43,313 bases of DNA from a virus. Positions within the stretch are counted from its first letter, which is position 1, and the number at the start of each line of letters is the position of its first letter. The position numbers and the translations under genes are program-made. Of the stretch, positions 4,531-28,900 are shown piece after piece. The notes beneath the pieces were generated by a model that was given only the letters and a program-made list of their open reading frames with translations, did not search any database and had not been told where the DNA came from. The stretch lies in IMG/VR virus record IMGVR_UViG_3300044499_000010, one strand, 5' to 3'.

Positions 4531-4542
4531 TCTGGAGGCTCT

Positions 4543-5556: not shown

Positions 5557-5576
5557 CCGAGAAGGAGTAACGCACC

Positions 5577-6536: not shown

Positions 6537-6587
6537 TACGTAGTGGCGGGCTTCCCCGTTCACTGCTTGGATAAAGGAGACTAGACC

Positions 6588-7085: not shown

Positions 7086-7087
7086 GC

Positions 7088-11682: not shown

Positions 11683-11692
11683 GGAGGAGACG

Positions 11693-11842
11693 ATGGCTAA
11701 AGAATCCATGAAACTGGGTGAGACGTTTTCCGCAACCAAAGTGAGCGGCGTCAGTGGACCGCTCCCACCTGAGCCCCCCAAGCCTCGGCATTATGCGATC
11801 GGCTACGGCGTCATTGCCGCGATCATCGTGGCGCTCAGTTAG
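11693..11842 (+). CDS. Small membrane-anchored protein (49 aa)
   Basis: Not in the ORF track (<60 aa). Strong RBS AAGGAGGAGA. MAKESMKLGETFSATKVSGVSGPLPPEPPKPRHYAIGYGVIAAIIVALS has a C-terminal hydrophobic helix. Confidence 0.5.
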   Translation: MAKESMKLGETFSATKVSGVSGPLPPEPPKPRHYAIGYGVIAAIIVALS

Positions 11843-11851
11843 GGAGATTAC

Positions 11852-13420
11852 ATGAGAACCGCTGTCCGCCAAGGCCGCGTGGCCAAGCAAAAGATCTCGA
11901 TCACGCAGACGTACCCGGCCCCCATTGCTGGATGGAACGCGCGCGATGGGCTCGCCTCGATGAAGCCCACTGATGCGATCGTGCTCAAGAACTGGTTTTG
12001 CCGCCCGTCCTATGTCGAGTTTCGCGGCGGCTGGGCCGAGCATGCGACCGGCACCACAGGCACAGTGAAAACGATTGCCGTCTATAACAAGATGACGGGC
12101 AGCAATCAGCTGTTCGCCTATACCGCGAGCGGGATTTATAACGTGAGCAGTGCGGGCGCGGTCGCCGCCTCGGTCCTCGCCCGCACGAACGGCAAGCACC
12201 AGTGGGTGATGTTCGGGGACGGCACGAGCAATTGGTTGATCGCGGTCAACGGCGTCGATAAACCAGCCTACTACGACGGCACGACCTGGACGGCGGTGAC
12301 AGAAGCCACGAGCCCGGCCTTGACGGGCTACCCTGCGAATGCCGTAGAGCAGTTCATCGCCGTCACGGTGTTCAAGGGCCGCCTGTTTCTCATTCCGATT
12401 AACAGCCTCTCATTCTGGTATCTGGCGGCAGGCGCAGCCGGTGGGGCCTTGACGGAGTTTGATCTGTCAGGCGAAGCCACAAAAGGCGGCTACTTGCTCG
12501 CCATGGCCACCTGGACGAGGGATGCGGGGAGTGGCCCGGACGACTTCGCCGTATTCTTCACATCCGAGGGTGAGGCGATTGTCTATCAAGGGACGAACCC
12601 CAGTGCGGTGAATACCTGGGCCAAGGTGGGCAGCTATACGATTGGGAGACCGCTCGGGCGGCGCTGCGTCATGCAGTACGGCGGGGACTGCGTGGTGCTC
12701 ACGGAGAACGGGGTGTTTCCGTTGTCGGCGCTCCTCCAGTCTGGTGACGAGCGGGCGAAGTTCGCGCTGTCCTATAAGATCCAGAACGCCGTGGTCGATG
12801 CCGCACGCAGCTATGGGTCCACGTTTGGATGGAAGGCGATCACCTTTCCCGCCTATGACGCGATGCTGGTAAATGTTCCCATTGCCGAGGACGGCGAGCA
12901 TGAGCAGTACGTGATGAACACCCTCACGAAGTCGTGGTCGAAGTTTACCGAATGGGACGCAGAGGATTTCGCGGTGTTCAACGGCGAACTCTATTTTGCG
13001 GTGGGCACGGAAGTCCGCAAATGCTGGACCGGCACGATCGACGGCGCAAACGATATTGTCTACTACGGCAAGCAGGCGTTTCAGGACTTCGGTGATCCGC
13101 GCAAAAAGCACTGTCAATTGTTCATGCCGATGCTTGCGGTGAGTGGGAATGTGGCGTATGGCGCAGATATCGACGTGGATTTTGAAGATGAAGAAATCTC
13201 CGGGACCGCCTCCTACACCGTCACTGCCGGGGCGCTCTGGGATGCCAGCAATTGGGATGAAGCCTATTGGGCGGAAAGCACGGTCACAGTGAAGCAGTGG
13301 AGTAGCCCTGCGACGTGGGAGGGGCGCTGGCTCTCCACGAAGCTCAAGATTGCCTCTAACGCGCTCACGGGGCAATGGAATGCGTCGGTCCTCGTCTACG
13401 AACATGGGGAGGGGCTATGA
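11852..13420 (+). CDS. Putative tail tubular B / nozzle-like protein
   Basis: 522 aa, beta-rich with repetitive G/T/W/Y blocks suggesting a propeller. It occupies a T7 gp12-like position. Confidence 0.4.
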   Translation: MRTAVRQGRVAKQKISITQTYPAPIAGWNARDGLASMKPTDAIVLKNWFCRPSYVEFRGGWAEHATGTTGTVKTIAVYNKMTGSNQLFAYTASGIYNVSSAGAVAASVLARTNGKHQWVMFGDGTSNWLIAVNGVDKPAYYDGTTWTAVTEATSPALTGYPANAVEQFIAVTVFKGRLFLIPINSLSFWYLAAGAAGGALTEFDLSGEATKGGYLLAMATWTRDAGSGPDDFAVFFTSEGEAIVYQGTNPSAVNTWAKVGSYTIGRPLGRRCVMQYGGDCVVLTENGVFPLSALLQSGDERAKFALSYKIQNAVVDAARSYGSTFGWKAITFPAYDAMLVNVPIAEDGEHEQYVMNTLTKSWSKFTEWDAEDFAVFNGELYFAVGTEVRKCWTGTIDGANDIVYYGKQAFQDFGDPRKKHCQLFMPMLAVSGNVAYGADIDVDFEDEEISGTASYTVTAGALWDASNWDEAYWAESTVTVKQWSSPATWEGRWLSTKLKIASNALTGQWNASVLVYEHGEGL

Positions 13421-13950: not shown

Positions 13951-15073
13951 CGGAACCTGTACCATCAACTTTCATCGACGGCGCACAGTCTTGTCCTGTG
14001 CGCCATCACCACCACCAGCCCCCGATGTGATTGGTGCCGCCAAGCAGCAGGGCATCGAAAATAAAGAAACGGCCATCACGCAAGGTCGGATCAATAACCC
14101 CAACGTTATCAGTCCCTATGGGACGCAAACGACGACCTGGGGCACGGTGGATCAACCGGGCTACGACGCCGCGCTCGCTAAATACCAGACCGACCTGGCC
14201 GCCTACAACGCGCAACCGCTGACGGCCCAGCCTGGTGCCAGGACGTGGGTGCCGAGCACGACGGGGAGTTATACCGACGCGCGAAGCGGCGGCGGAACGC
14301 CAGGTGGCCAATGGGTGACGGCGCCCAGCACGGGCATTCGTCCTGGCACGGCCCCCGTTGCGCCGACAAGAGCCCAATTCACTCGGAACCCAGATCAGCC
14401 CACCATCACCCAGGTCTTTTCCCCTGAACAGCAAGCCCTCTACGATCAAAGCACGACCACGCAGCAGCAGCTCGGGCGCGTGGCCGGACAAGGGGCCACG
14501 GCCCTCGAAGGCGTGGTCGGCACCCCCGTCGATTTCTCCGGCGCCCCTCAAACCGGCAACTACGACGCCACGCGCAAAGCCGTGATTGACGCCATGATGG
14601 GGAGGGTGAATGAGGATTACGACAAGCGCACGGATACCGACCGCTCCAATTTGATTGCTGCCGGCATTCGCCCAGGGAGTAAAGCCTATGCCGATAATCA
14701 GCAGATGATCGAGCGGAGCCGCAACGACGCCTATCAGCAAGCGGAAATCGCGGGAGGCAACGCCGCCTCTCAGGCTTACGGCATGGATGAAGCCCGAAGA
14801 CGGCAGGCGATCACCGAACTGTTAGCCGAGCGGCAAACCCCCATCAACGAAATCAGCGCCCTCCTGTCCGGCTCACAGGTCAGCAATCCGTTCAGCATGC
14901 CGGGGTATGCGCAAAATACGCAAGTCGCCCCGACGCCCTATTACAACGCGGCGCAGGCGGCTGGGCAGTACGGCACCGATATCTTTAATCAGCAGGCGGC
15001 CAGCGCAGGGAACACACAGAGCGGCCTGATGGGCCTCGGGGGGACGGCCATCATGGCAGGAGCGATGCTATGA
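13922..15073 (+). CDS. Putative internal virion / ejection protein (start uncertain)
   Basis: 383 aa from GTG 13922, with GGAG 7 nt upstream. It is Q/A/G/T/P-rich. An alternative start is GTG 14027. Position corresponds to the T7 gp13/14 region. Confidence 0.4.
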   Translation: MSKLTPLQSDGTCTINFHRRRTVLSCAPSPPPAPDVIGAAKQQGIENKETAITQGRINNPNVISPYGTQTTTWGTVDQPGYDAALAKYQTDLAAYNAQPLTAQPGARTWVPSTTGSYTDARSGGGTPGGQWVTAPSTGIRPGTAPVAPTRAQFTRNPDQPTITQVFSPEQQALYDQSTTTQQQLGRVAGQGATALEGVVGTPVDFSGAPQTGNYDATRKAVIDAMMGRVNEDYDKRTDTDRSNLIAAGIRPGSKAYADNQQMIERSRNDAYQQAEIAGGNAASQAYGMDEARRRQAITELLAERQTPINEISALLSGSQVSNPFSMPGYAQNTQVAPTPYYNAAQAAGQYGTDIFNQQAASAGNTQSGLMGLGGTAIMAGAML

Positions 15074-15735
15074 AGGCGCTCGCGTTCTCCGGGGGCAAAG
15101 ATTCGATGGCGTGCCTCCATCTGCTCAAGGACGAATTGGACTGCGCCATCTACGTCGATACGGGTTACACGTACCCCGAGACGCACGCCATGGTCGCGTA
15201 TGCCAGTACCATGATTTCGATGCACCGCGTCAAGAGTGACCGCCAAGGTCAGCAAGCGTTGAATGGGCTCCCCTCCGATGTGGTGCCGGTGGAATGGACG
15301 GTCACCGGGCAATCTATTACCGGGAAGAAAGCGACGACCATTCAAGCCTCCCTGCAATGTTGCTACGAGAATCTGTCTCGCCCGTTACTGGATCGTGCCA
15401 AAGCACTGGGCGTCACGGAGCTGGTCTATGGGCAGCGGAAGGAAGAACTGTACACGGCCCCCTCGAAGCACGGGGAGGTCGTGGAAGGCATGACGCGCCT
15501 GTATCCCATTGAGGACTGGACCACCAGGCAAGTACTCGACTATCTGGCGACGAAGATGCAAGTGCCAGACCACTACACACTCACCCGCTCCTCGCTCGAT
15601 TGCTACGACTGCCCGGCCTATCGGCGCGTATCGCAGGATCTCCATGCCTGGACCAAGGACCGCTATCCCCACTATTACGCCGCCTTTCAGCAGAACTGTA
15701 ACACCGTCTATGCGGCCATTCAGGAGGCGCTGTAG
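15070..15735 (+). CDS. PP-loop ATP pyrophosphatase (PAPS-reductase / adenine nucleotide alpha-hydrolase superfamily)
   Basis: ATGA overlap. The N-terminus MKALAFSGGKDSMACLHLL carries the SGGxDS PP-loop. The C-terminus has SSLDCYDCPAY (CxxC). Confidence 0.75.
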   Translation: MKALAFSGGKDSMACLHLLKDELDCAIYVDTGYTYPETHAMVAYASTMISMHRVKSDRQGQQALNGLPSDVVPVEWTVTGQSITGKKATTIQASLQCCYENLSRPLLDRAKALGVTELVYGQRKEELYTAPSKHGEVVEGMTRLYPIEDWTTRQVLDYLATKMQVPDHYTLTRSSLDCYDCPAYRRVSQDLHAWTKDRYPHYYAAFQQNCNTVYAAIQEAL

Positions 15736-17339: not shown

Positions 17340-18856
17340 CGACCGCGATTGACGAAAAAGAGGAGTTTGAATTCCTCTACCAAATGGAGCAGGACGCCAA
17401 GGCGGGCATTCCACCGCCTAATCCCGCACCAGTGAAAGCCTCGATGGGCGACGTGATCGCGGGCACCCCGCTGGCACGCCTTGGAATGGGCTTGGCCTCA
17501 CCATTGATCGGCGCGGCTCAGATCGGCGCGCATGTCGGCGATGTGGCGAACCGCGCAATGGGTGTCGAGCCAATGGTGAGCCCGTGGATCGACAAGAAAT
17601 TGTCAGAGTATGAAGCCGCCAAGCAACGCGGCATGAAGGCGTCTGGCACCGAAGGCTTTGACGCGATGGGCCTGATCGGGTCCTTGCTGCCTGGATCATC
17701 TATCGCCAAGGGTGTGACAGCCGCGCTGCCAGCCGCCAAGAACATCGGAGGGAGAATCTTGCAAGGGGCAGGCATTGGGGCAGCGACGTCAGCCGCGCAA
17801 CCCGTCGTCAACTCGCCTGAGTTTTGGAGCGACAAGGGCAAGCAGGCTGGGATCGGAGCGGTAACAGGGGCAGCGGTGCCAGCGGTAGCGGAAGCCTTAC
17901 GGGCGGCACGCGGGATGCCGCAACTCAATCCTGTGAAGGCACAGACGCTCAAAGAAGGCCAGGCGGCTGGCTACGTCGTGCCGCCGTCCACGGTCAATCC
18001 ATCGTTCCTCACCAATCGACTGGAAAGCGTGGCTGGGAAGGCGGCAGTGGGACAGGAAGCGGCGAAGAGGAACCAAGAAGTGACAAATGCGCTGGCGGCG
18101 AAATCGTTAGGCCTTCCGAAAGAGACGACCTTGACGCCTGAAGTGTTGAGCGAGTTCAGAACGCAACAAGGGAAAGTCTACGAACAAGTGGCCGCACTCT
18201 CCGACACGGCGAAAACTGCATTGAACGAACTCAAGCAAGCGCGCCATGACTCCAAAGTGCAATGGAACTTTTACAACCGCTCAGGCAACCCGGAGGCGCT
18301 TGCGACTGCGAAGAATGCCGATGCGATGGCAGAAATGTTCACGGACGAGTTAGGCACTGAAGCCACAAAGGTGGGTCGGTCTGATCTGATTCAATCCCTG
18401 ACGGATGCCCGTACAAAAATCGCCAAGTCGTTCGATGTGAGCCGCGCACTCAATGCGTCATCTGGTGAGGTGAATGCGCCGACGTTGGGAAAGATATTTG
18501 CCAAGCGAGGCGACAAGGCGATGACAGGTGAACTCGCCACGATAGGGAAAATGGCGGGCGCGTTCAAGGGATCGATGCGCGAAGGTGGGAACGTCCCAGT
18601 CTCAGGCGTCAGTGGCACTGATGCCGCAGCCTCAGCCTTACTGGGAGTCGCGGGAGCAGCTGGAGGAGGGCCAATGGGGCTCCTTGCTGGTGGATTGCCG
18701 CTACTGCGTGGACCTGCCCGCAACTTGGTGCTCTCGAAGGCCTATCAGAACTTCGCGACCAGCGACCCCTCAAAGTATCAGGCGCTCATTGATGCGCTTT
18801 CGCAGCGCGGCGCGGGGGCAGCAGGGACCATCGCCGGACGAGGAGTACAGCCATGA
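17336..18856 (+). CDS. Putative internal virion / ejection protein with Gly/Ala-rich hydrophobic segments
   Basis: 506 aa, ATGA overlap. It has several G/A-rich membrane-like stretches (GIGAATSAAQP, GVAGAAGGGPMGLLAGGLPLL). T7 gp16-like position. I saw no lysozyme or transglycosylase motif. Confidence 0.4.
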   Translation: MTTAIDEKEEFEFLYQMEQDAKAGIPPPNPAPVKASMGDVIAGTPLARLGMGLASPLIGAAQIGAHVGDVANRAMGVEPMVSPWIDKKLSEYEAAKQRGMKASGTEGFDAMGLIGSLLPGSSIAKGVTAALPAAKNIGGRILQGAGIGAATSAAQPVVNSPEFWSDKGKQAGIGAVTGAAVPAVAEALRAARGMPQLNPVKAQTLKEGQAAGYVVPPSTVNPSFLTNRLESVAGKAAVGQEAAKRNQEVTNALAAKSLGLPKETTLTPEVLSEFRTQQGKVYEQVAALSDTAKTALNELKQARHDSKVQWNFYNRSGNPEALATAKNADAMAEMFTDELGTEATKVGRSDLIQSLTDARTKIAKSFDVSRALNASSGEVNAPTLGKIFAKRGDKAMTGELATIGKMAGAFKGSMREGGNVPVSGVSGTDAAASALLGVAGAAGGGPMGLLAGGLPLLRGPARNLVLSKAYQNFATSDPSKYQALIDALSQRGAGAAGTIAGRGVQP

Positions 18857-19986
18857 GCTTTAACGGCAGTGGAGTATTCGTGGTCAACAGCGCTGGCCAA
18901 CCTGTCGTGGCTACTACGCTCATTACGGCAGCGGCGATGAATGCCCTCACGGCTGATCTGGCTACAGGACTATCAAATTGCATTCTGAAAGACGGCACAC
19001 AGACCCTCACCCAAAACATCCCTTTCAACGCCAAGAAGATTACGGGCCTCGGCGCGGGATCTGCGCGCACCGATGGGGCCTCCTTAGCGACCATTCAGGA
19101 CGGGACCGGCGTGTACGTGGCGACGGTCGCTGGCACGGCGGACGCCATTGAACTGACGCCCTCCCCCGCGATTACGGCGTATGTCGCGGGGCAGACCTTC
19201 AGGTTCTTGGCGAGCGGGGCCAATACCACAGCCGTGACCGTCGCGGTCTCAGGCTTAGTCGCCAAAGCCCTCACAAAGAATGGCACGACGGCCCTCGTGG
19301 CAGGGGATATTCCATCGGCGTCGATGGTGTCCGTCACCTACGACGGGACGCGGTTTATCATCGTGACCGCTGCCTTGTCGTTCTCGATTCTCGATACGGC
19401 GGGCGATCTGATCTATGCGTCGGCGGCGGATACCGCCGCGAAGCTGGCCATCGGCACAGCGCGGCAGGCATTGACCGTCAACGCCGGAGCGACGGCGCCC
19501 GCATGGGCGAACCCTATCACCATCGGGACCGAGCAAGCCTCTACCTCGGGCACCTCGATCGACTTCACCGGCATTCCCGCTGGCGTGCGGCGGATCACGA
19601 TCATGTTTGTCGGAGTGTCTACCAACGGGAGCGCAGAACCGTGGGTTCAATTGGGCGATGCAGACGGGTTCGAGGCGTCTGGATATACGAGTACGATTGC
19701 CGTCTTATCGAATGTAAACACGGTCGTTGTCACAGATGAAACAAACGCCTTTCAGGTAAGTACGCAAGGCGCAACCGTCGCATTGACAGGAACGCTGGTC
19801 TTGTGTTTGGAGGATGCGGCACAATTTACTTGGATGGCGTCAGGGAATTTTAACAGATCCGACACTGTTTTCAATGTTGTTGCAGGCTCCAAGTCACTCA
19901 GCGCCGAACTCACACAAGTACGGATTACCACAAGCAACGGGAGTGACGCCTTTGACGCGGGAGCGATCAACATCAATTACGAATAA
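18853..19986 (+). CDS. Tail fiber protein
   Basis: The N-terminus MSFNGSGVFVVNSAGQPVVATTLITAAAMNALTADLATGLSNCILKDGTQ matches the conserved N-terminal anchor seen in many podovirus tail fibers. The remainder is T/A/G/V-rich and beta-like. Confidence 0.7.
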   Translation: MSFNGSGVFVVNSAGQPVVATTLITAAAMNALTADLATGLSNCILKDGTQTLTQNIPFNAKKITGLGAGSARTDGASLATIQDGTGVYVATVAGTADAIELTPSPAITAYVAGQTFRFLASGANTTAVTVAVSGLVAKALTKNGTTALVAGDIPSASMVSVTYDGTRFIIVTAALSFSILDTAGDLIYASAADTAAKLAIGTARQALTVNAGATAPAWANPITIGTEQASTSGTSIDFTGIPAGVRRITIMFVGVSTNGSAEPWVQLGDADGFEASGYTSTIAVLSNVNTVVVTDETNAFQVSTQGATVALTGTLVLCLEDAAQFTWMASGNFNRSDTVFNVVAGSKSLSAELTQVRITTSNGSDAFDAGAININYE

Positions 19987-19997
19987 TAAGGAGCCCT

Positions 19998-20180
19998 ATG
20001 CCAGCCACCTATCAAGTCATCACGGCCACGGGGCGCGTGGCGCTGGACATCCAGCTGAACGAGCAAGCCAAGAACTTCTATCGACCCATCTTGTTCGCCC
20101 AGTCCGAAGGGATTCTCGCAAGTGGAGAAACCCAGAAGAACGTGCATTACACGGTGATTCTGGAGCATAGGCCATCATGA
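19998..20180 (+). CDS. Hypothetical protein (60 aa)
   Basis: RBS AAGGAG. It lies between the tail fiber gene and the first secreted-protein gene. Confidence 0.45.
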   Translation: MPATYQVITATGRVALDIQLNEQAKNFYRPILFAQSEGILASGETQKNVHYTVILEHRPS

Positions 20181-20194
20181 CAAAGGAGACGACC

Positions 20195-21154
20195 ATGTGG
20201 ACACGACGACTCCTCACTGGGCTGCTGCTGGTGGGCCTCTGGGCCTTCTATAGCCCGCATGTCCACGCCTCCTGCGAGGTGCAAACATCCACCGCGACCT
20301 ACGCGAACGGGACCTTTATCGGGGGTGATCTCTGCGATGAGAACGGTAACAAAAAGACCACGACCAACGGGTCTTTGGGTGGCAGCGGCACCGCCACAGA
20401 AGTGGCGCCAACCTTGGCAGAAGGCGCTGGTGCCGCCTTCTCCTTCGACCTCTCCGGACAACTCCGCACGACGCCCGCGCTGGCATTCTTTGAAGATTCG
20501 ACCAACAGCCTGGCCCGGGTCAGCGGTGGGGCCATTCGCACTTCGACCGTAATGACCGGCGTGACCACCAATACCACCAGCGCCACGACGCCCGTGTTCA
20601 GTGGAGCCAAGACGCCGATGGCGAGCGTGACCGGCACCGGAGCCCAGACCGCAACGGTACAGTTTTATGGGGACATGGAGAACACGACGACACACGGGGA
20701 AGTGTTGTGTCCCGCCATCGTATTGAGTGGGACCACCAAGGCGGTCGGATTTTGCCCACAGGTCAGCAAGGATTACCCGTATGTGCACGCGGTGACTACG
20801 GCAGTCACCGGCACCGGGGCGACCGTGGAAGCGGTGATTGTCACGGGGTTAGCGAGCGCCTCCAAGGACGAGTGGCTGTCGTCGGGCATTAAGACGGCGG
20901 ACGCGCTCATCAAAACCGGCGCCGGGAAATTGCAGTGCATCATTATTGCCCAAAACGACGCGGCCCCGACCGCTGGCACGATCAGCGTGAACGATGCGGT
21001 CTCGGCAGGCACGGGCACCGCGCTGTTCACCTGGGTGCTGACCACGGCGGTGTTCTCGCCGTTTCAAGTGTGCCCGCAGGTGCCGTTTACGACGGGGCTG
21101 TATATCGACAACACAACTGTTGGTGACGTGAATATTTCGTTGTCGTACAGATGA
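20195..21154 (+). CDS. Thr-rich protein with a cleavable Sec-type signal peptide
   Basis: AAGGAGA lies 6 nt upstream of ATG 20195 (alternative start 20177, which has an ATGA overlap). MWTRRLLTGLLLVGLWAFYSPHVHA/SCEV shows n-h-c regions and an AxA-like cleavage site. Confidence 0.6.
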   Translation: MWTRRLLTGLLLVGLWAFYSPHVHASCEVQTSTATYANGTFIGGDLCDENGNKKTTTNGSLGGSGTATEVAPTLAEGAGAAFSFDLSGQLRTTPALAFFEDSTNSLARVSGGAIRTSTVMTGVTTNTTSATTPVFSGAKTPMASVTGTGAQTATVQFYGDMENTTTHGEVLCPAIVLSGTTKAVGFCPQVSKDYPYVHAVTTAVTGTGATVEAVIVTGLASASKDEWLSSGIKTADALIKTGAGKLQCIIIAQNDAAPTAGTISVNDAVSAGTGTALFTWVLTTAVFSPFQVCPQVPFTTGLYIDNTTVGDVNISLSYR

Positions 21155-21915
21155 TACTTAATGGTTATAAAATGACTGACGAGCATAAGAGGAAGATCAG
21201 TCTGGCTTTGATCGGACGGAAGAATCCAAAGATCAGTCTTGCCAAGATGGGCCACAGCGTCTCCGAAGAAACGAGACGCAAGATCAGCCTTGCGAAGAAA
21301 GGCGTTCCTAGTCCTACCAAAGGCAGGAAATTTCCCCCAGAGTTCGGAGCGAAAATCAGCGCGAGATTGAAGGGCCGAGTTGGTACCAACAAAGGAAAAA
21401 CTTTCTCAGCCGAAGCACGCGCCAATATGAGTAAGGCTCGCAAGGGTCACTCTGGTCCCAATAAGGGCAAAACATTTTCACCAGAATACCGAGCCAAATT
21501 ACGTGAGGCCCATCTTGGTCAGGTGGCGTGGAATAAAGGGCTCAAGGGCGTTCAGAAATCGTGGAACAAAGGAAAACCGTCCCCGTGGATGAAAGGTGAG
21601 AAGAACTGTCGCTGGAAAGGCGGCGTCACGGCTGCGCACCGATTGGAGCGTGCAAGTATCCAAGCGCGAGAATGGCGCGAAGCCGTCCTCGCCCGTGACG
21701 CCTTCACCTGTCAGCACTGTGGCCAGATTGGCGGCAAATTACAGGCTGACCATATCCGTATCTGGGCACACCATCCAGAACTTCGATTCGATGTGAGTAA
21801 TGGACAAACACTCTGCAAGTCCTGTCACAGCAGAAAAACCAGCACCGACATGAAGGAATATTGGGTGACGACATTTTCAAAACAATCAGTTCAGGTGAGC
21901 GCGATGAAGCCATGA
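21151..21915 (+). CDS. HNH homing endonuclease with four NUMOD3-like DNA-binding repeats
   Basis: NUMOD3-like repeats: TDEHKRKISLALIG, SEETRRKISLAKKG, FSAEARANMSKARKG, FSPEYRAKLREAHLG. C-terminal HNH: CQHCG...LQADHIRIW...NGQTLCKSCHSRKT. ATGA overlaps at both ends. Confidence 0.85.
   Translation: MILNGYKMTDEHKRKISLALIGRKNPKISLAKMGHSVSEETRRKISLAKKGVPSPTKGRKFPPEFGAKISARLKGRVGTNKGKTFSAEARANMSKARKGHSGPNKGKTFSPEYRAKLREAHLGQVAWNKGLKGVQKSWNKGKPSPWMKGEKNCRWKGGVTAAHRLERASIQAREWREAVLARDAFTCQHCGQIGGKLQADHIRIWAHHPELRFDVSNGQTLCKSCHSRKTSTDMKEYWVTTFSKQSVQVSAMKP
21151..21915 (+). mobile_element. Free-standing homing-endonuclease gene inserted in the tail-fiber module
   Basis: Same ORF as above. It is visibly more A/T-rich than the flanking genes and splits a run of secreted-protein genes. 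Confidence 0.6.
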
Positions 21916-22613
21916 AGAAATACCTCCTCCTGATTCCGCTCCTCTGCCTCCTGGCCTCGCCGGTCTGGGCCTTCCCCGACAACGGCCTACTGGACGACTT
22001 TACCGGCTGCACCGATACCACGACCCCGCCGAACGCCAACTGGACCAATACCGTGTTGCGTGGTGCTACGTCGAGCACGGTGGACTGTGAAGATACGGCG
22101 GCGACTGCCACGACCACGGGCACCGAGGCGGATATGTATTGGCACGCCACGACCTTCAACGCCGACTCCGAAGCCTACGGCACCGTCGTCGGGACGTTGG
22201 CTGGCTTTGTCTCGGCGGCAGTTGGAGTTCGCATGGTGAATATTGGTGCTAGCACCACGGACGGCTACATGGTGAAGGTGAGCGATGGGCTCGCTACGAT
22301 TGTGATTGAACGCATTGACAACGGTACATCAACTGAAATTGCAACAGAGGCGCAAACGATCACCTCTGGGGATAGTTTCGGGATTCGCGCCGAGGGCTCG
22401 TCTATTTGTTCTTGGTACAAGCTCGCCGCTGGGGGCTGGACACAAATTGAATGCGCTACGGATGCCACCTACACCGCTGGAGGGAATTTGGGTGTGATGG
22501 TCCAAGGCAACGGCGCGGTTGGGGCGTTAGACGACGTGGGCGGTGGCAATCTTGCGGCGGCGGCGGGTGTGCTGCAATCGCCTGCGCTCCCGAGTGTGCT
22601 CTTTCAAGAATGA
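21912..22613 (+). CDS. Secreted protein with Sec signal peptide, beta-sandwich (lectin/LamG-like?)
   Basis: ATGA overlap with the HNH gene. MKKYLLLIPLLCLLASPVWA/FPD is a signal peptide. The rest is beta-rich (GYMVKVSDGLATIVIERIDNG...GDSFGIRAEGSSICSWY). Confidence 0.55.
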   Translation: MKKYLLLIPLLCLLASPVWAFPDNGLLDDFTGCTDTTTPPNANWTNTVLRGATSSTVDCEDTAATATTTGTEADMYWHATTFNADSEAYGTVVGTLAGFVSAAVGVRMVNIGASTTDGYMVKVSDGLATIVIERIDNGTSTEIATEAQTITSGDSFGIRAEGSSICSWYKLAAGGWTQIECATDATYTAGGNLGVMVQGNGAVGALDDVGGGNLAAAAGVLQSPALPSVLFQE

Positions 22614-25600
22614 GGTCCAGGATGCTGCTGAAATTTGTGCTCGCGTTGGTTCTCCTGAGCTTTCCCTCTCTGGCCCAGGCCACGACCTACTATATCTCCC
22701 CCACTGGCTCTGATGCCGCGGCTGGCACTTCGACAGGTACCGCCTGGCAAACATGGAGCAAAGCATTGGGGGCCAGTTCTGCTTGCGGTGATACCATCCT
22801 TGTCATGGACGGCACCTTCACCACGGCGACACATGGCAATCCCTCGCTCACCAAGGTCTGCACGGTAGGCAACGAATTTACTGTGCGTGCTCTGAATCAG
22901 CGTGTCGCATTAATCAGTGGGGATGGCACTGCGCATTCTTTTCGTGTCATCAACAGCGCGTATGTCGTCCTCGACGGGTTGCGTATCAAGTCTGTGGATA
23001 ATGCGACGACGAACAGTGAAGCCGTGGTGGCGATTCGGACCTCCAGCCATGTTACGATAAAAAACTCGTTGATCTACACCAATAACCGCTACGGGAACAC
23101 GCATTTACTCGGACTCTTTACCTCAACCAATGGGCTCGTAGAGGATCTGGAGCTGTACGACTTTCATCGGCATGGCATCATCATTTCGAGTGGGAGTTTC
23201 AATGTAATTCGACGTATGTATTGTCATTCGAGGAATCGTGCTGATATTGTCGGGGGGTTTGCCAGCGCCAGTCCCACACGCGGAGAAGGATGTACTGCTG
23301 TCTATCCCTCGAACGACAACATTCTGGAGAACATCATTGCCGAGAACTCGCTCGAAATTGCGGAAGTCAATTCCAGCGGGACCAATCAGGGCCGTCGCAA
23401 CCAAATCCTCGGTTCGGTCATTATCGGGTCGAGTACCTATCCCTCTGGCCGTGGCATCATCTTTGACGCACGCGCCAACAGCACGTCAGGTCAACCGCAG
23501 GATAACACCGTTCGGGATAGTGTAGCCATTCTCCAAACGGGGAACGGCAATCACGGTATAAACGCGCGCGGCGCGTTGAATACGCAGGTGTGGAACTCCA
23601 CAGTCATCGGGGCGGAGTTCGCTGGGTTCGCCGCCGATGAGGGGCCGTTCACGGGTGGAGGGACAAACTCGTACTTCTGTACCAACTGTCTGAGCCTCAA
23701 TAACGGGACGCAGGGCTTTATTGTGGAACCAGCTCCCGCTACGGATAACTGGACGATCAATTACCCGAACAGTTTTGGGAACGGTACCGCCTTCTCCCCC
23801 GCGGCGTCAGACCCGAACATCACCAACGAACAGACCATTGACCCAGTATTGGGGAGTTGCTATCTGTGGCTCCCAGACGCCTCACCACTCAAGGGAGCCG
23901 GATTAGCTGGGGCCGACATTGGCGCGACCATCCTCTACCGCTACGTCGATGGCGTGCTCACGACCACGAAACTCTGGGACGATGTGACGGGTGAGTTCCC
24001 GCACGGCGCGATCATCGCCGGGGTGAACGATATTGCCGGGCAATCCCTGTTTGATGTCCACGAACGCCTCCACGTCGGCACGGCGAACGGGTGCGCGTTC
24101 CCCGCTGGCTATGCCGGAAGTCCTCCCGCCAATCCTGCGGGACTCGTGTCGTCGCAAGGCACCACAAACCCCTCACATGATCGGACCGTCACGGCATCGA
24201 AAGAAGCCCTTGTCGCCGGGATTGCGCTCAATGACACGTCGGGGAATGTGGGGACGGTGACGGGCGTCACGTCCTCATGCGGAGCCGAAGCGTTGACCCA
24301 AGTCGGCACCGCCGTCACGTCTCCGGCCTATCGGCGCGTCTACTTGTTCCGTCGCCTCAATCCGACTGCGGGAAGCTGTACGATTTCGGTCGTCACGTCT
24401 GGCACGGTCATGGCGTCGGTGTTGACGACGAATGAGTACGACAATGTGGCCGCATTTGGGACAGCAGTGACCGCCACGGGGTTGAGTGGAACACCGTCTG
24501 TCACGGCCTCAGTCGTGGCTGATGCGGGCAATATCATCCTGGATATGTATGCCGGGAAGTGCGGGCTGAGTGCAGGGGTCTGTACGACGAGCCTCTCTGC
24601 TGGGCCTAACCAAGTTCTCCAAGGTGATCAAGGCCATTTTACGCTCGGTGATGTTCGACTCGCCACTTCGGAAAAAGTGAGTACGAACGGCACCAATATC
24701 TCCTATGCAACACTTAATAGCTATTGGGCGATCGTGGCCGTGCCCATGTGCGCGGTGAGTTGTGACGCGCTGACGCACGTCGTGACGCAGAGCCAGAGCC
24801 AAGTCGATGGCGCGTTCCTGGTGGGCGGGGCCGTGGTGCATCTTGGGGCCGTCAATGCGGCCAACGTCAACATTCCCATCGGCACCTCGTTTGCCGTGAC
24901 GCTCCAGACCGACTGCACCGTGGCAGCCAGTCCCACGGGTGGGCGGCGCGTATGGGTCAGTCACGATAGCGGGGCCTATGCACCGCTGACCGATACGCTC
25001 ACGAACGGCATTGTATTTCACGGGGCGACAGGAGATCCCCTGCTGGTGTCTGGGGCGGTCGCCGCCTGCCTGGATGCCGGAGCCTTGACGGAAGTGGCTG
25101 GCACCACGATTCAATCCGCCGCGACGACGCCAAGTGTGACCCTGACGCAAGATGATTGCACGGCGAATCGCTGGGTCGCCACATTGGGGCAGGCGGCGTC
25201 AGGCACCTACGAGTTCCGTGAGTACACCGATGCCGGAGTACCGCTCGATGCCTACGGGGCGACTGCTGACGCGAAGATCACCGTGACGGGCACCCAGCCC
25301 GATATTCAAGCGCCAACGAACTTGAAGCTGACCGGATCTGCATCGACCGACGTGACCTTGAGCTGGTCGCCGAATGCCCATGTGAATTTTGCGGGCTATC
25401 GGGTCTACCAGAGCACCGAGAGCGGGGTCTATGACGTGGTGCCGACCTATGCCACGACGCCCTCCATCGCGGCCTTACTGAATACCCCCGTGACGACCTG
25501 GAGCACGCAGCTTTCACTTGCCGACACCTATTACTTCGTGGTGACGGCCTTTGACCATGACAACAACGAGTCGGCGGTGAGTAACGAGGTGAGCGTGGCC

Positions 25601-25669
25601 TTGACGGGCATGCCGACACGTACCGTGTCCACCACGCGCACCGCCGCCACCGCGAGGACGCCACGATGA
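22610..25669 (+). CDS. Large secreted right-handed beta-helix protein (tailspike/depolymerase-like) with C-terminal FN3 domain
   Basis: 1019 aa from ATG 22610 (ATGA overlap). Signal peptide MRSRMLLKFVLALVLLSFPSLAQA/TTYYISPTGSDAAAGTSTGTAWQTW. The motif GDTILVMDGTFT is typical of pectate-lyase-fold proteins. FN3-like segment: APTNLKLTGSASTDVTLSWSPN...GYRVYQS...YYFVVTAFDHDNNES. Confidence 0.7.
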   Translation: MRSRMLLKFVLALVLLSFPSLAQATTYYISPTGSDAAAGTSTGTAWQTWSKALGASSACGDTILVMDGTFTTATHGNPSLTKVCTVGNEFTVRALNQRVALISGDGTAHSFRVINSAYVVLDGLRIKSVDNATTNSEAVVAIRTSSHVTIKNSLIYTNNRYGNTHLLGLFTSTNGLVEDLELYDFHRHGIIISSGSFNVIRRMYCHSRNRADIVGGFASASPTRGEGCTAVYPSNDNILENIIAENSLEIAEVNSSGTNQGRRNQILGSVIIGSSTYPSGRGIIFDARANSTSGQPQDNTVRDSVAILQTGNGNHGINARGALNTQVWNSTVIGAEFAGFAADEGPFTGGGTNSYFCTNCLSLNNGTQGFIVEPAPATDNWTINYPNSFGNGTAFSPAASDPNITNEQTIDPVLGSCYLWLPDASPLKGAGLAGADIGATILYRYVDGVLTTTKLWDDVTGEFPHGAIIAGVNDIAGQSLFDVHERLHVGTANGCAFPAGYAGSPPANPAGLVSSQGTTNPSHDRTVTASKEALVAGIALNDTSGNVGTVTGVTSSCGAEALTQVGTAVTSPAYRRVYLFRRLNPTAGSCTISVVTSGTVMASVLTTNEYDNVAAFGTAVTATGLSGTPSVTASVVADAGNIILDMYAGKCGLSAGVCTTSLSAGPNQVLQGDQGHFTLGDVRLATSEKVSTNGTNISYATLNSYWAIVAVPMCAVSCDALTHVVTQSQSQVDGAFLVGGAVVHLGAVNAANVNIPIGTSFAVTLQTDCTVAASPTGGRRVWVSHDSGAYAPLTDTLTNGIVFHGATGDPLLVSGAVAACLDAGALTEVAGTTIQSAATTPSVTLTQDDCTANRWVATLGQAASGTYEFREYTDAGVPLDAYGATADAKITVTGTQPDIQAPTNLKLTGSASTDVTLSWSPNAHVNFAGYRVYQSTESGVYDVVPTYATTPSIAALLNTPVTTWSTQLSLADTYYFVVTAFDHDNNESAVSNEVSVALTGMPTRTVSTTRTAATARTPR

Positions 25670-25995
25670 GGTATCTCGGCTGGCTCATGCTCCTGATTCT
25701 GGTCGGCTGTGCCAGCCAGTCGGCGGAGGCACGGCCAAGACCCAAGCCCGCACCGCTGGCGACGTTCACCTGGGACCGCATGCCGAATGCGATCGACTAT
25801 CGGTTCTATCTGTGCTGGATACCCCGGTGTACGCCGGATGTGCCAAGGACAGAGATTGTGGCGCAGACCATAGAAGGGGTCACGCCGACGTTTCGGATCG
25901 ATCTGACGGGTTCTGTGGGCGCGGCGGCGGTCTCAGCCCGCAATGCCAGTGGCGAATCAGGCCTGAGCAACGTGGTGCGATTTGATCGACGATGA
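25666..25995 (+). CDS. Small lipoprotein with FN3-like domain
   Basis: ATGA overlap. MRYLGWLMLLILVGC contains the lipobox L-V-G-C. TFTWDRMPNAIDYRFYL...SARNASGESGLSNVVRF is FN3-like. Confidence 0.6.
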   Translation: MRYLGWLMLLILVGCASQSAEARPRPKPAPLATFTWDRMPNAIDYRFYLCWIPRCTPDVPRTEIVAQTIEGVTPTFRIDLTGSVGAAAVSARNASGESGLSNVVRFDRR

Positions 25996-26001
25996 GGCGG
26001 T

Positions 26002-26520
26002 ATGGGCCTGACCATCGAGGACATGAAACTGTCCCAAAATGCCAAGCGGGCGGCGCAGCTTATCCTCTCGTATCATCCCACGGTGGTGTTTACGTCTGGC
26101 CGGCGCGATGCCCGAGACCAAGCGCGGGCGATGGCGGCAAATACGATTCGCTATGGGGTGGGCTGGCTCGGACAGACCTATAAGAACCAGAACATGGTGC
26201 GGAGTTTGGAGGAGTGGATGGAGCAGCACTTAGACCAGACAGCCTCAGAGAAGCTGATGACGGAAGGCTTCTATCAGACAATCCTCACCACGCAGGCGGG
26301 GCAGCTCGCGCAGTTCCCGCATTGCCGGGGGGACGCCATCGACATTCAGTGTCCGCGCTATGCCAGCGGCCAGGTCGATGAGCCGGCGGTGCTCAGGATC
26401 AAACATACGATCGAGACCTTACCGAATGAGTTGGGGTTGCAATTGATCGTGACCAGAGAAGGTTCTTTGAGAATTATCCACGCACAATTTAATCATGTGG
26501 TGGAGTCCGTCGAGGTCTAG
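26002..26520 (+). CDS. Peptidase M15-like endolysin (putative)
   Basis: TSGRRDARDQ, HCRGDAID (H-x6-D zinc ligands) and a later IIHAQF. It sits at the head of a cluster of small membrane-protein genes. Confidence 0.6.
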   Translation: MGLTIEDMKLSQNAKRAAQLILSYHPTVVFTSGRRDARDQARAMAANTIRYGVGWLGQTYKNQNMVRSLEEWMEQHLDQTASEKLMTEGFYQTILTTQAGQLAQFPHCRGDAIDIQCPRYASGQVDEPAVLRIKHTIETLPNELGLQLIVTREGSLRIIHAQFNHVVESVEV

Positions 26521-26531
26521 GTGATGAGTGC

Positions 26532-26729
26532 ATGAGTACCACCGAGCGGATGCTGATCGGCGCGTTGTTCGCCATCCTGATGGGACTGGAGGCATGGCTG
26601 TTGGGCACCGTGAGTGTCAATAGTGCGCGGATCGCCGTGCTGGAGCAACGAACGAACAATCATTCTCGTGAGATGGTCGACATGAAGGCCGATATGAGAG
26701 ACCATCGATCGGCTACGGAGCGGCGGTGA
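26532..26729 (+). CDS. Small membrane protein (holin or spanin-like candidate)
   Basis: 65 aa with an N-terminal TM helix (MLIGALFAILMGLEAWLLGTVSV) and a charged C-terminal tail. Confidence 0.45.
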   Translation: MSTTERMLIGALFAILMGLEAWLLGTVSVNSARIAVLEQRTNNHSREMVDMKADMRDHRSATERR

Positions 26730-26917
26730 TGTGGCTGCTGGTTATCATGTTCCTAGGGCCAGAAATCTTCACGCAGCAGGAGCTGTATCGGTATGAAACG
26801 ATCGAAGCGTGCCAGGTCGAACGGGCGCGCATCGGCTTCGAGATGGCTGAATCGTACCCGGAAGCAGGCTTTCGCATCGTGTGCGTGAAGCAGCGGACGC
26901 CACAGGAGGCAGCCTAA
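26726..26917 (+). CDS. Small membrane protein
   Basis: 63 aa, ATGA overlap, N-terminal hydrophobic segment MMWLLVIMFLG. Confidence 0.4.
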   Translation: MMWLLVIMFLGPEIFTQQELYRYETIEACQVERARIGFEMAESYPEAGFRIVCVKQRTPQEAA

Positions 26918-27264
26918 TGAGCGATGAAGAAGTCAAAGCGACGGTCTTTGGGACGCCGGTCGCTATTAAGGGCATTGCGGCACTCGTCGTCGTGGTGCTG
27001 GCCGCCGCCTTGGGCGGGTTGATTTATCTGCTCTTGACCGTCAACGCGAGCGAGCACAGGCAGCAATCGATCCAGCAGATGCAGGAGCACCAGGCGTTCG
27101 TCGAGACGCTCAAGGAGATCAACCACACGAACGAGAAAATTCAGGATGCCGTGGACGAGAACAGTTATATGGTACTGGCGGACGAGAAGGAACGCCAAGC
27201 CATCAAGGCGAAGTTAGGGCGACCATCGAGTTTGAGCAGGAAGCTCAGGGCAGAGACCGAGTAA
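26917..27264 (+). CDS. Type II membrane protein with coiled-coil ectodomain (i-spanin-like candidate)
   Basis: TAATG overlap, with AGGAGG upstream. TM helix IAALVVVVLAAALGGLIYLLLTV is followed by a Q/E-rich helical region. Confidence 0.45.
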   Translation: MSDEEVKATVFGTPVAIKGIAALVVVVLAAALGGLIYLLLTVNASEHRQQSIQQMQEHQAFVETLKEINHTNEKIQDAVDENSYMVLADEKERQAIKAKLGRPSSLSRKLRAETE

Positions 27265-27283
27265 TTAACCAAGGGAGGATGGC

Positions 27284-27496
27284 ATGCGACAGATTCTTGA
27301 TTTTCTCGTCGGAAAGAAAACCTATGTGATGATTGGGGTAGACGCGCTTGATCAACTAGGGATCGCGCTCGGCTGGTGGGAGGAAGCAAAGATTCGCACC
27401 ATCGTTGAGTTCGTGTTGACGGCGGGCTTCCTGCGGGCCGGGATCAATACCAGTGCGCCCGTACCGATTCCGTTTATTTCAAAAGGGAAATTGTAG
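27284..27496 (+). CDS. Small hydrophobic protein (holin-like candidate)
   Basis: 70 aa, RBS GGGAGGA. Hydrophobic stretches: YVMIGVDALDQLGIALGWW and IVEFVLTAGFL. Confidence 0.4.
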   Translation: MRQILDFLVGKKTYVMIGVDALDQLGIALGWWEEAKIRTIVEFVLTAGFLRAGINTSAPVPIPFISKGKL

Positions 27497-27498
27497 GG

Positions 27499-27717
27499 AT
27501 GCCAGGTGAACTGCAAGGCCTGGGCCTGGTCGCCCAACTCTTGAACTCGCTCTTTACTTGGGCCACGGGGCCGGATGGGTGGGAGCAACTCAGCATCGAG
27601 CGAAAGGTGCAGGTGATACATGCAGGCATTCAAGTGGCTCAGGCAAAGGGCGAAACTGCTGCTGTGGACGCTCTGTTTGCTGAGTATCGTGAGCTGTCGA
27701 AGCGGGTCGGTACTTAA
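27499..27717 (+). CDS. Hypothetical protein (72 aa), overlapped by the next gene
   Basis: ORF directly after the previous gene. Its 3' 98 nt are shared out of frame with the lipoprotein gene 27620..27841. Confidence 0.4.
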   Translation: MPGELQGLGLVAQLLNSLFTWATGPDGWEQLSIERKVQVIHAGIQVAQAKGETAAVDALFAEYRELSKRVGT

Positions 27718-27841
27718 AAGCCTAGAGGTCGATGCGACCTCGAAGGGAGCGAGCACGAAGTTCGTGCTGGAGCATTCCGACTTGTATGCGGAAAATATCC
27801 GGCTCAAGCAGGCGTTAGAGATTTGCCAAAAGAAGAAGTAG
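27620..27841 (+). CDS. Small lipoprotein (o-spanin-like candidate)
   Basis: MQAFKWLRQRAKLLLWTLCLLSIVSC contains the lipobox I-V-S-C. The mature part is about 48 aa with a second Cys near the C-terminus. It is the last gene of the plus-strand operon. Confidence 0.5.
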   Translation: MQAFKWLRQRAKLLLWTLCLLSIVSCRSGSVLKSLEVDATSKGASTKFVLEHSDLYAENIRLKQALEICQKKK

Positions 27842-27911
27842 CCGCCTACCGCGTCAATCGGGCGTGCTTGCGCGGGGTGGTGGCGCGGTTGAAGGCCGCG
27901 TACAAAGAGTA

Positions 27912-28049
27912 GCTAGGGCTGGATGTACCGCCAACGTTTGGTCTTGGTCATCAGGTTGCGCTTCTGCCAGACTCCGTTGATGAAGCGATATTGAAAGCCT
28001 CTCACCATCACGGCGTTCTTGGAACGCCAAACGATAGTCCGTTTCGTCA
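27912..28049 (-). CDS. Possible 45-aa very basic ORF in the convergence zone
   Basis: GTG start with a weak RBS. VTKRTIVWRSKNAVMVRGFQYRFINGVWQKRNLMTKTKRWRYIQP. It ends in the same GTAGCTAGGG context as the upstream gene. Confidence 0.2.
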
Positions 28050-28109
28050 CTGTAGTCCCATTTTTACAGGCTCAGGCACGCCCTGAAGCTGGCGCAGGAG
28101 GAGCGGTAG

Positions 28110-28259
28110 CTAGGGCCTCAGATAGCGCCACAGGGCATAGAGGGCCGAGGCGGGCAGGCCAATCACGATGCCCCAGACCATAAGCTGCAACAGCGTCCAC
28201 ACGATGCGCGTACCAGCATACTGCAAGGCGCGATCCGCGAAGTCAACTAGCGCGTCCAT
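28110..28259 (-). CDS. Small membrane protein (49 aa)
   Basis: Not in the ORF track. MDALVDFADRALQYAGTRIVWTLLQLMVWGIVIGLPASALYALWRYLRP has one TM helix. Its ATG overlaps the end of the upstream small ORF. Confidence 0.45.
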   Translation of the reverse strand: MDALVDFADRALQYAGTRIVWTLLQLMVWGIVIGLPASALYALWRYLRP

Positions 28260-28417
28260 GTAAATCTCCCCAGGAAGAGACTCCACGCCCCCACCAGCAG
28301 CGTCCAGGCGCCGAGGAGTAGGAACAGGAGCGAGTCGATCGCCCCGGTCCCGTGATTACGACGGGGCAGTTGGTCATTGAGGAGGCTGAATAGGGTGGGG
28401 TGTTTGATTGTGGCCAT
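28247..28417 (-). CDS. Small membrane protein (56 aa)
   Basis: Not in the ORF track. RBS AGGAGA is 7 nt upstream. MATIKHPTLFSLLNDQLPRRNHGTGAIDSLLFLLLGAWTLLVGAWSLFLGRFTWTR. Preferred over the 114-aa ORF 28243..28587, which is in another frame. Confidence 0.45.
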   Translation of the reverse strand: MATIKHPTLFSLLNDQLPRRNHGTGAIDSLLFLLLGAWTLLVGAWSLFLGRFTWTR

Positions 28418-28464
28418 GATGGATCTCCTATGAAGCAGTAGGCGCCTGAGTGCTCGTATGCGTC

Positions 28465-28488
28465 AACCCCCCTCACACGAGGGGGGTT
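28465..28488. other. Perfect 10-bp GC-rich hairpin (AACCCCCCTC-ACAC-GAGGGGGGTT)
   Basis: Read directly. It overlaps the stop codon of the minus-strand gene 28487..28900, and no U-tract follows on either strand. Confidence 0.8.
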
Positions 28489-28900
28489 AGGGGGTCCGCC
28501 AGCACTGCGCCTTGGCGGCGGTCCATTGCTCCAAGGCATCCCATGCTCCCTTGGGCCATAATTCTCCGTGCAGCCGATCAACGCCACGCAGAGTCAGGCC
28601 AGGAACACTTTCCATAAGAAACGGCTCCATCGCCCGCATCGCGGCCTCCATGGTGGCGAGGCAGTCTGGTGTATGAGCCTGAACGTACTCACGATCAATC
28701 GCAAACCGCTTGATTTGTGGATACGCTATGGCCGCACTCACTATCGCCCGACCAAGTTGTTCCTGGTCGCTGCCAGCTATAATAAACCCAATGCCCCCGT
28801 CAACTCCGCTTATCCTCCAATTCCAAAACTGTGCAGGCTCCTCCCCCGCCCCCGCCTCCACGGCGACCAGCAGCAGGGCGAGGCATAGGAGGGATTTCAT
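28487..28900 (-). CDS. Secreted hypothetical protein (Sec signal peptide)
   Basis: RBS GAGGAGG. MKSLLCLALLLVAVEAGAGEEP is a signal-like N-terminus. 137 aa. Confidence 0.55.
   Translation of the reverse strand: MKSLLCLALLLVAVEAGAGEEPAQFWNWRISGVDGGIGFIIAGSDQEQLGRAIVSAAIAYPQIKRFAIDREYVQAHTPDCLATMEAAMRAMEPFLMESVPGLTLRGVDRLHGELWPKGAWDALEQWTAAKAQCWRTP

Follow-up and report, generated by a model that had tools for sequence, protein, structure and literature searches.

We analysed the 43,313-nt sequence of IMG/VR virus record IMGVR_UViG_3300044499_000010 (hereafter the window, i.e. the whole stretch of DNA) and concentrated on four plus-strand genes, A to D, located behind its tail fibre gene and ahead of its presumed lysis cassette. 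Genes A, B and C encode proteins with predicted signal peptides and gene D a predicted lipoprotein. Drawing on the export signals, cysteine pairing, fold, ancestry, gene coupling and accessory status computed here, we favour with moderate confidence the view that A-D constitute an accessory late module of Sec/Lol-exported, glycan-targeting proteins, not a tailspike, that would act on host polysaccharide from the periplasm and again once the cell has lysed.

Organisation of the cassette

A preliminary description of this region had announced four consecutive tail-module genes with export signals. The signals were recovered in all four products, three being of the signal peptidase I (SPase-I) type (A, B and C) and one a lipobox, LVGC (D), each conserved in its family. 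The genes themselves are not consecutive, since an HNH/NUMOD3 gene lies between A and B, and a 60-aa open reading frame (ORF) separates the fibre gene from A (Table 1). The ATG of gene A at 20195 is preceded 7 nt upstream by an AAGGAG Shine-Dalgarno motif, with an alternative start at 20177. ATGA start/stop overlaps couple the HNH gene to B, B to C and C to D, the HNH gene having such overlaps at both ends. Reading C from a start at 22451 would give a protein of 1072 aa; we rejected this longer version, as it would overlap B by 163 nt and all homologs begin at the signal peptide. Promoter and terminator matches in 18500-28500 stayed at chance level, with an E. coli-type consensus that may not fit the host. 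As ATGA overlaps couple the genes and no internal promoter or terminator signal rose above chance, we infer late co-expression of the cassette.

The gene between A and B matches Pfam NUMOD3 (2e-20) and HNH (8e-8) as well as HNH families of PHROGs. The 1-kb bin containing it has a guanine-cytosine (GC) content of 53 %, versus 55-63 % in adjacent bins of the region. Related loci and contigs are referred to below by L numbers; related cassettes without the HNH gene are L065, L067 and L070, whereas the independent contig L071 carries it. Judged by these features, it is a homing endonuclease gene that has been inserted into the cassette, interrupting the A-D run.

Export signals

Export signals were assessed with a heuristic based on n-, h- and c-regions, which accepted 7 of 7 E. 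coli signal peptides and none of five cytoplasmic or tailspike controls. The Sec/SPase-I type was defined by a positively charged n-region, an uncharged hydrophobic h-region of 7-15 residues and small residues at -3/-1, and the lipobox by [LVI][ASTVI][GAS]C closing the h-region. The N-termini read MWTRR-LLTGLLLVGLWAFY-SPHVHA/S for A, MKK-YLLLIPLLCLLA-SPVWA/F for B and MRSR..FVLALVLLSF-PSLAQA/T for C, with predicted cleavage at VHA/S, VWA/F and AQA/T, respectively, and all three Sec/SPase-I features are present in each. That of D reads MR-YLGWLMLLI-LVGC and thus ends in a lipobox. The heuristic places A-D in the positive range, and their signals look Sec-type, with no twin-arginine motif.

Applied to the 72 ORFs of the window, the heuristic flagged only A, C, D, one further credible gene on the minus strand (28487-28900) and two doubtful small ORFs. 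Gene B was missing from this automatic set (its ORF overlaps the long upstream extension of C) and passed when scored separately. The minus-strand gene encodes 137 aa with a strong signal-like N-terminus (MKSLLCLALLLVAVEAGAG), starts the minus-strand block and has no family match.

Homologs collected by database searches (97 for C, 14 for B, 43 for A and 29 for D) displayed the same property: a signal-like N-terminus was found in 81/97 homologs of C, 14/14 of B, 39/43 of A and 24/29 of D, those without being mostly fragments or sequences with mis-called long starts. In the C family the AxA site stands immediately before T(Y/R)YISPxGS, the conserved motif that opens the beta-helix, and in the B family the predicted cleavage site is marked by an invariant A/FP. 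The D family alternates between lipobox and SPase-I signals, the lipoboxes of close homologs being VAC, SAC, AAC and VGC. Export of A-D out of the cytoplasm thus appears well supported, with translocation and cleavage themselves predicted.

Paired cysteines

The mature parts of the exported proteins have a second common property. Cysteine counts were even in 39/39 mature A homologs (2 to 10 Cys) and in all 14 mature B homologs (counted from the invariant A/FP junction onward), where three distinct Cys pairs are gained or lost jointly in the alignment; among full-length mature C homologs they were even in 34/37. In an independent comparison of late-operon proteins from 12 related loci, signal-bearing proteins, unrelated to one another, gave 25 even and 6 odd counts, versus 33 and 49 for signal-less proteins (Fisher p=1.3e-4), and the window's own virion proteins had no bias to even counts. 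Paired cysteines in A, B and C therefore form a disulfide signature, as expected of proteins that fold oxidatively outside the cytoplasm, and the statistics support disulfide formation in the exported proteins as a probable event.

These observations bear on whether the N-terminal segments could be uncleaved membrane anchors or have another non-secretory role, an option also raised in the preliminary description. Hydrophobic N-termini by themselves cannot separate a signal peptide from a signal anchor. However, the small -3/-1 residues are conserved, with the A/FP junction of B invariant and the AxA of C preceding the T(Y/R)YISP motif; D has a lipobox, and its family switches between lipobox and SPase-I signals; and paired cysteines would place the protein bodies outside the cytoplasm even if the segments stayed uncleaved. 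Given the disulfide signature and the lipobox, we consider a non-secretory role extremely improbable.

Fold and ancestry of protein C

The AlphaFold2 model of C (predicted local distance difference test, pLDDT, 74) comprises a signal helix, a right-handed beta-helix (residues ~26-455), beta-sandwich domains (~510-890), an FN3-like domain (~900-990) and a basic tail. Foldseek matched it to GH136 lacto-N-biosidases, PL6 alginate lyases, chondroitinase B, GH87 glucanase, AlgE epimerase and phage capsule depolymerases, and, among viral models, to beta-helix proteins of uncultured phages and 'minor tail protein' models of actinophages. Pfam scores were below cut-off for Beta_helix (17.3 bits; cut-off 25.9) and, over residues 901-987 where AlphaFold2 places a beta-sandwich, for fn3 (22.6 bits; cut-off 25). 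PF22842 (Pel9A-like beta-helix) is precomputed on many C homologs, and the Nitrospira homolog exceeds its cut-off of 25.2 with 30.4 bits. Sequence searches of the PDB with A, B and a C profile gave chance-level matches only, bar the N-terminal YYxxPxGSD motif of C, which also occurs in a PL9 rhamnogalacturonan lyase. As modelled, C is a right-handed beta-helix carbohydrate-active enzyme with beta-sandwich/FN3 domains; the beta-helix fold given in the preliminary description is borne out by AlphaFold2 and Foldseek, and the FN3 domain is matched by a beta-sandwich in the AlphaFold2 model, with the Pfam scores remaining sub-threshold.

No N-terminal particle-binding or anchor domain was found in C, the TTYYISPTGS beta-helix motif starting at residue 25-26, right after the signal. 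The label 'tailspike' that the protein had received is therefore not retained, C being anchorless and part of an accessory, mobile cassette.

Fifteen polar residues are invariant among phage and cellular C homologs (R98, N159, Y161, N163, E178, E181, R187, H188, R201, R202, Y204, R208, Y232, E240 and N241). Structure prediction and a search for catalytic residues had been suggested for C at the outset; the former displayed the beta-helix, and in the latter R98, E178, E181, R187, H188, R201, R202, E240 and N241 fit lyase or hydrolase chemistry alike.

The six best matches of C in a scan of species-representative genomes all lie on contigs of Nitrospira metagenome-assembled genomes (MAGs). The homologs of L022, L024, L025 and L027 are ~520 aa long and consist of the beta-helix only, plus a signal or lipobox. 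Their identity to C (39-43 %) equals its closeness to phage relatives. A Pfam scan of the neighbouring genes in L024 and L025 identified a Bac_transf/Polysacc_synt_2 initiating sugar transferase/dehydratase, a Wzz-GNVR-AAA_31 ATPase co-polymerase, a UDP-sugar dehydrogenase, a DegT aminotransferase, a Wzy_C protein and GT4 glycosyltransferases, i.e. exopolysaccharide (EPS) clusters. In L025, the C homolog adjoins a signal-bearing protein (6438-7793, minus strand) with 'viral BACON' (BACON_2) repeats and fn3.

On the basis of the 39-43 % identity and the 15 invariant residues, phage C and the Nitrospira EPS-cluster enzyme share recent ancestry. They probably catalyse the same chemistry, and a surface or matrix polysaccharide of Nitrospira is a likely substrate of C.

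The C-termini of these families also display regularities. The last residues are (I/F/W)(F/L)Q in most B homologs and MGF or AGF in many ~900-aa C homologs; C of the window ends in FN3 and a basic TARTPR tail, as do P0002 and the B+FN3 fusion P0100. The conserved C-termini of the B and C families may represent a sorting or interaction tag.

Proteins A, B and D

Neither Pfam nor PHROGs gave a match for A, B or D. In the AlphaFold2 model of A (pLDDT 77), the signal is followed by a low-confidence Thr/Gly-rich linker and by two confidently modelled beta-sandwich domains at 115-218 and 237-318, with weak fold matches to PNGase F-II, XepA (6i56; E 6e-4, TM score 0.26-0.29) and PRD1 P3. The FN3-like character first ascribed to D is supported: D appears to be a divergent FN3 domain, since it can be aligned with true fn3 repeats in the large proteins P0161 and P0170, and it carries a conserved CxxxxC pair. 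The possibility that D is a duplicated piece of C was rejected, D and the FN3 end of C having no similarity.

The cassette as an accessory, mobile module

The nearest deposited genome, 'Bacteriophage sp.' MW202489 (Manatee Spring; portal 42 % and head protein 60 % identity), shares head, tail and fibre genes with the window, the fibre N-terminal 74 aa matching phrog_13989 (virion structural protein) and the fibre being 41 % identical to that of MW202489 over 107 aa. In MW202489 the fibre gene is followed by two small genes and a holin gene, and the cassette is absent. No annotated late gene of that phage has a signal-like N-terminus, the sole late-strand flag being an internal alternative start. 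Neither megablast of 18000-27000 nor tblastn of A, B and C returned a match among 50,697 deposited phage genomes.

C homologs sit in phages otherwise unlike the window and are nearly always flanked by other signal-bearing genes. A blastp comparison of all window proteins with the loci holding C homologs recovered C, B and the endolysin candidate and nothing else, so that a common phage family cannot explain the shared cassette. B lies directly upstream of the C homolog in L065-L068. A siphovirus-like locus (L065) has four successive signal-bearing genes, including B and C homologs, between connector and tail tube genes; L067 has a 327-aa protein, B, C and then an endolysin; and in L008 a signal-bearing run, in which a lipoprotein follows C, stands 5' of the tape-measure gene. 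L069 combines an A homolog, three other signal-bearing proteins and then a lysozyme, with a different large protein. The locus with the closest C (L070, 51 %) encodes an A-like protein, a protein with the B signal, C, a D homolog and an SLT endolysin, and has no HNH gene. A T7-like locus binned with a Nitrospira MAG (L002) carries seven successive signal-bearing genes before those of tail tubular proteins A and B; this most extreme case (4270-12721; 416, 286, 103, 281, 397, 417 and 906 aa) occupies the space between head genes and tail tubular protein A. Finally, a prophage on a 719-kb contig (L001) contains a C homolog and a signal-bearing staphylococcal nuclease (SNase); this SNase-like protein (2810-3238) comes right after the portal, and the SNase encoded close to the lysis genes of L069 lacks a signal.

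The cassettes thus precede endolysin or lysozyme genes in L003, L067, L069 and L070, and tail tube, tubular or tape-measure genes in L002, L008 and L065. Such shifting positions are hard to square with a fixed tail component and point to an accessory, mobile module.

The same comparison bears on whether C, with A and B, is an exported tailspike that folds in the periplasm and binds tails once lysis mixes the compartments. Its beta-helix fold is common to phage depolymerase spikes, its C-terminal segment matches 'minor tail protein' families, and the cassette genes always share the strand and operon of the late structural genes. Late attachment is physically possible, as the in-vitro joining of P22 tailspikes and T4 fibres to particles shows; we know of no precedent for docking of an exported tailspike after lysis. 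Against this, C has no N-terminal particle-binding domain, the phage already has a fibre with a conserved adaptor N-terminus (and no signal peptide), backbone relatives function without the cassette, the cassette varies in position relative to tail genes, D as a lipoprotein would remain in the membrane, and the cellular C homologs are ordinary secreted enzymes. We judge this distinctly unlikely. A broader version, in which exported proteins are host-recognition parts of the virion, matured by disulfide formation in the periplasm and docking at lysis, seems very unlikely to us; were it true, runs of up to seven signal-bearing genes (L002) would be exported fibre sets.

Components are also exchanged between cassettes. 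The signal of L070 1227-1985 is near-identical to that of B (MKTLLLLLPLLCLLASPAWA vs MKKYLLLIPLLCLLASPVWA), the mature part having no blastp similarity, so the protein body has apparently been swapped behind a retained B signal. Swapping of this kind (the B signal in L070, the large protein in L069) is also a trait of host-range modules, and would suit receptor destruction or superinfection exclusion, in which exported proteins strip or mask the infected cell's polysaccharide receptor from the periplasmic side, with D an outer-membrane lipoprotein like T5 Llp or Cor; competing phages would be shut out and progeny would not be lost on debris. Llp and Cor are lipoproteins encoded beside receptor-binding genes, and here the cassette directly follows the fibre gene, with a lipoprotein after C in the window, L070 and L008. 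This explanation rests on the same export evidence as a glycan-targeting module and may coexist with it. However, expression late, alongside the lysis genes, would hardly give exclusion time to matter, D has no detectable likeness to known exclusion proteins (no Pfam or PHROG match), and a ~100-kDa depolymerase is a costly means of masking a receptor. We treat it as a serious alternative, albeit an unlikely one.

Genome context and probable host

The window is a complete circular assembly of ~43,186 bp with an exact 127-nt direct terminal repeat (1-127 = 43187-43313); a gene at 16-978 is probably the continuation of one running across from the window's 3' end. The phage is a podovirus, the Brucella Tb-like podoviruses being more distant portal matches than MW202489. 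From 1 to ~27.8 kb, the plus strand carries portal, head, tail/ejection, fibre, cassette region and presumed lysis cassette in that order (Table 1), and replication and recombination genes are on the minus strand. The 172-aa endolysin candidate had no Pfam match and only chance-level matches in the PDB sequence search.

Table 1 Features of the plus-strand late region of the window
Feature	Coordinates	Strand	Remarks
Portal	978-3263	+	42 % identity to MW202489
Major head protein	5577-6536	+	5' of tail/ejection genes
Tail fibre, 377 aa	18853-19986	+	Candidate receptor-binding protein; context, outside the cassette
Small ORF, 60 aa	19998-20180	+	Between fibre and A; no signal; also on independent contig L071
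Gene A, 319 aa	20195-21154	+	Predicted signal peptide, residues 1-25 (nt 20195-20269)
HNH/NUMOD3 homing endonuclease, 254 aa	21151-21915	+	Free-standing, between A and B; not exported
Gene B, 233 aa	21912-22613	+	Predicted signal peptide, residues 1-20 (nt 21912-21971)
Gene C, 1019 aa	22610-25669	+	Predicted signal peptide, residues 1-24 (nt 22610-22681)
Gene D, 109 aa	25666-25995	+	Predicted lipoprotein; lipobox LVGC, Cys15
Presumed lysis cassette	26002-27841	+	Directly 3' of D
Endolysin candidate, 172 aa	26002-26520	+	Assigned by position only; homolog follows C homolog in L003
Membrane protein, 65 aa	26532-26729	+	Hydrophobic N-terminus
Rz-like protein	26881-27264	+	Weak PHROG spanin match
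Lipobox protein (IVSC), 73 aa	27620-27841	+	May be o-spanin

Two further genes of the structural region deserve mention. A PAPS-reductase-like gene (15070-15735, plus strand; phrog_424, 4e-22) stands amid virion and ejection-protein genes, MW202489 having an acetyltransferase roughly there. A 403-aa protein (9062-10273, plus strand) contains 12 Cys (3 %) and has no family match, the other virion proteins having 0-1.8 % Cys.

The ancestry of C in Nitrospira EPS clusters and the 58 % GC content make Nitrospira the probable host, to which protein similarity and MAG binning also point; we know of no cultured Nitrospira phage. A tRNA scan of the window returned zero hits.

Prophage cargo has to be weighed here as well, i.e. 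proteins made in the lysogen that remodel host EPS or biofilm to the host's benefit. The C homolog of L001 is in a prophage, and signal-bearing prophage carbohydrate-active enzymes (CAZymes) are known, about 5 % of prophage CAZymes carrying signal peptides (PMC13507307). In the window, however, ATGA overlaps couple the cassette to neighbouring late genes, the genes tested include no integrase, and the sequence closes into a circle through its 127-nt terminal overlap. We rejected this model on the chance-level promoter and terminator scan of 18500-28500 (E. coli-type consensus); lysogenic conversion, one of the possibilities listed in the preliminary description, is thereby disfavoured and highly improbable.

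Proposed function of the module

That A-D are not ordinary tail parts assembled in the cytoplasm, as the preliminary description had reasoned, is upheld by the conserved signals, the paired cysteines, the anchorless C and its EPS-cluster ancestry, and the accessory, mobile character of the cassette. Among the options it had offered, free or periplasmic enzymes remodelling EPS fit best; envelope exclusion or receptor destruction keeps the lower standing given above.

For a glycan-targeting module, we propose the following course of events. A-D would be expressed, at both the transcript and the protein level, along with the virion and lysis genes. A, B and C would pass through Sec and be cut by SPase-I, and D would be lipidated and sorted as a lipoprotein; the exported proteins would acquire disulfide bonds in the periplasm. 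Judging from its fold and ancestry, C would cleave a host surface or matrix polysaccharide of the EPS, capsule or O-antigen class, with A, B and D (putative beta-sandwich/FN3 proteins) probably binding glycan or tethering C. Lysis by holin, endolysin and spanin, presumed from gene position only, would then free the oxidation-stabilised enzymes with the progeny, and these may clear polysaccharide around the burst cell and its neighbours. The most likely benefit would be the clearing of capsule or matrix, so that progeny leave dense microcolonies.

Several points weigh against such a module. Export and cleavage of A-D are predictions only, and the cysteine counts come from related sequences, for which binomial p-values overstate independence. 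Phage C has a 400-500-aa C-terminal extension that is absent from cellular homologs and that matches PHROG 553 'minor tail protein' (1.7e-12) and actinophage minor tail models, so that a link of C to the virion is conceivable. Sec reaches the periplasm only, so action at the surface before lysis would need access to nascent chains or further secretion. Finally, the assignment to a Nitrospira host is based only on protein similarity, MAG binning and GC content.

The cassette brings together a depolymerase and three partners that appear dedicated to export, disulfide-stabilised, host-derived and mobile among uncultured phage morphotypes. If our reading is true, it adds a step of phage escape or receptor clearing for hosts buried in polysaccharide microcolonies. 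Nitrospira, a key nitrifier of wastewater and drinking-water biofilms, is such a polysaccharide-embedded host. The link between the phage enzyme and a host EPS cluster may serve as a host-linking marker, the cassette enzymes are candidates for dispersing nitrifying biofilms, and runs of signal peptides with even cysteine counts in late operons may provide a genomic signature for similar modules.

Comparison with known systems

In the literature on signal-bearing tailspikes, Nitrospira phages and late exported phage enzymes that we searched, this exported cassette of late phage operons is not described. What appears new is the combination: translationally coupled genes for several exported proteins, conserved as a cassette in the late operons of phages of several morphotypes, whose core enzyme comes from a host EPS cluster.

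Phage depolymerases are well known in both free and virion-bound form, the free ones being usually seen as surplus tailspikes released at lysis. Like phage depolymerases and tailspikes (P22 gp9, LKA1 gp49, Klebsiella KP32 gp38), C is a predicted right-handed parallel beta-helix, encoded late and probably cleaving host surface polysaccharide. Unlike them, it begins with a Sec-type signal predicted to be cleavable, lacks a particle-binding domain at its N-terminus and is encoded in a cassette with other exported proteins. Its sequence is nearer to that of cellular enzymes from EPS clusters than to that of any phage protein on deposit.

T5 Llp, Cor and lambda Lom and Bor are phage-encoded envelope proteins beside tail genes. 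D resembles them as a signal or lipobox protein beside a receptor-binding gene; no homology was detected, however, and those proteins are single, small and usually expressed early or from the prophage, not late and in coupling with an enzyme gene.

XepA of PBSX is a late protein exported past the cytoplasmic membrane, absent from particles and encoded just before the lysis genes (PMC6834076). The cassette shares this position before lysis genes, and A gives a weak two-beta-sandwich fold match to XepA (6i56). There is, however, no sequence similarity, the host of XepA is Gram-positive, and XepA is a single protein, not an enzyme cassette.

A parallel for the enzyme itself is found in cellular EPS clusters, which encode exported glycanases such as AlgL, PslG and BcsZ. 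In Pantoea, an EPS cluster encodes WceF, an exported EPS hydrolase that resembles tailspikes (PMC7949094). C is comparable to them as a predicted secreted beta-helix enzyme related to genes within Wzy/Wzc-type polysaccharide clusters. In contrast to WceF, C is phage-borne and apparently expressed late, carries additional beta-sandwich/FN3 domains and has three further exported proteins as partners, and its predicted signal is Sec-type, whereas WceF uses twin-arginine translocation (Tat).

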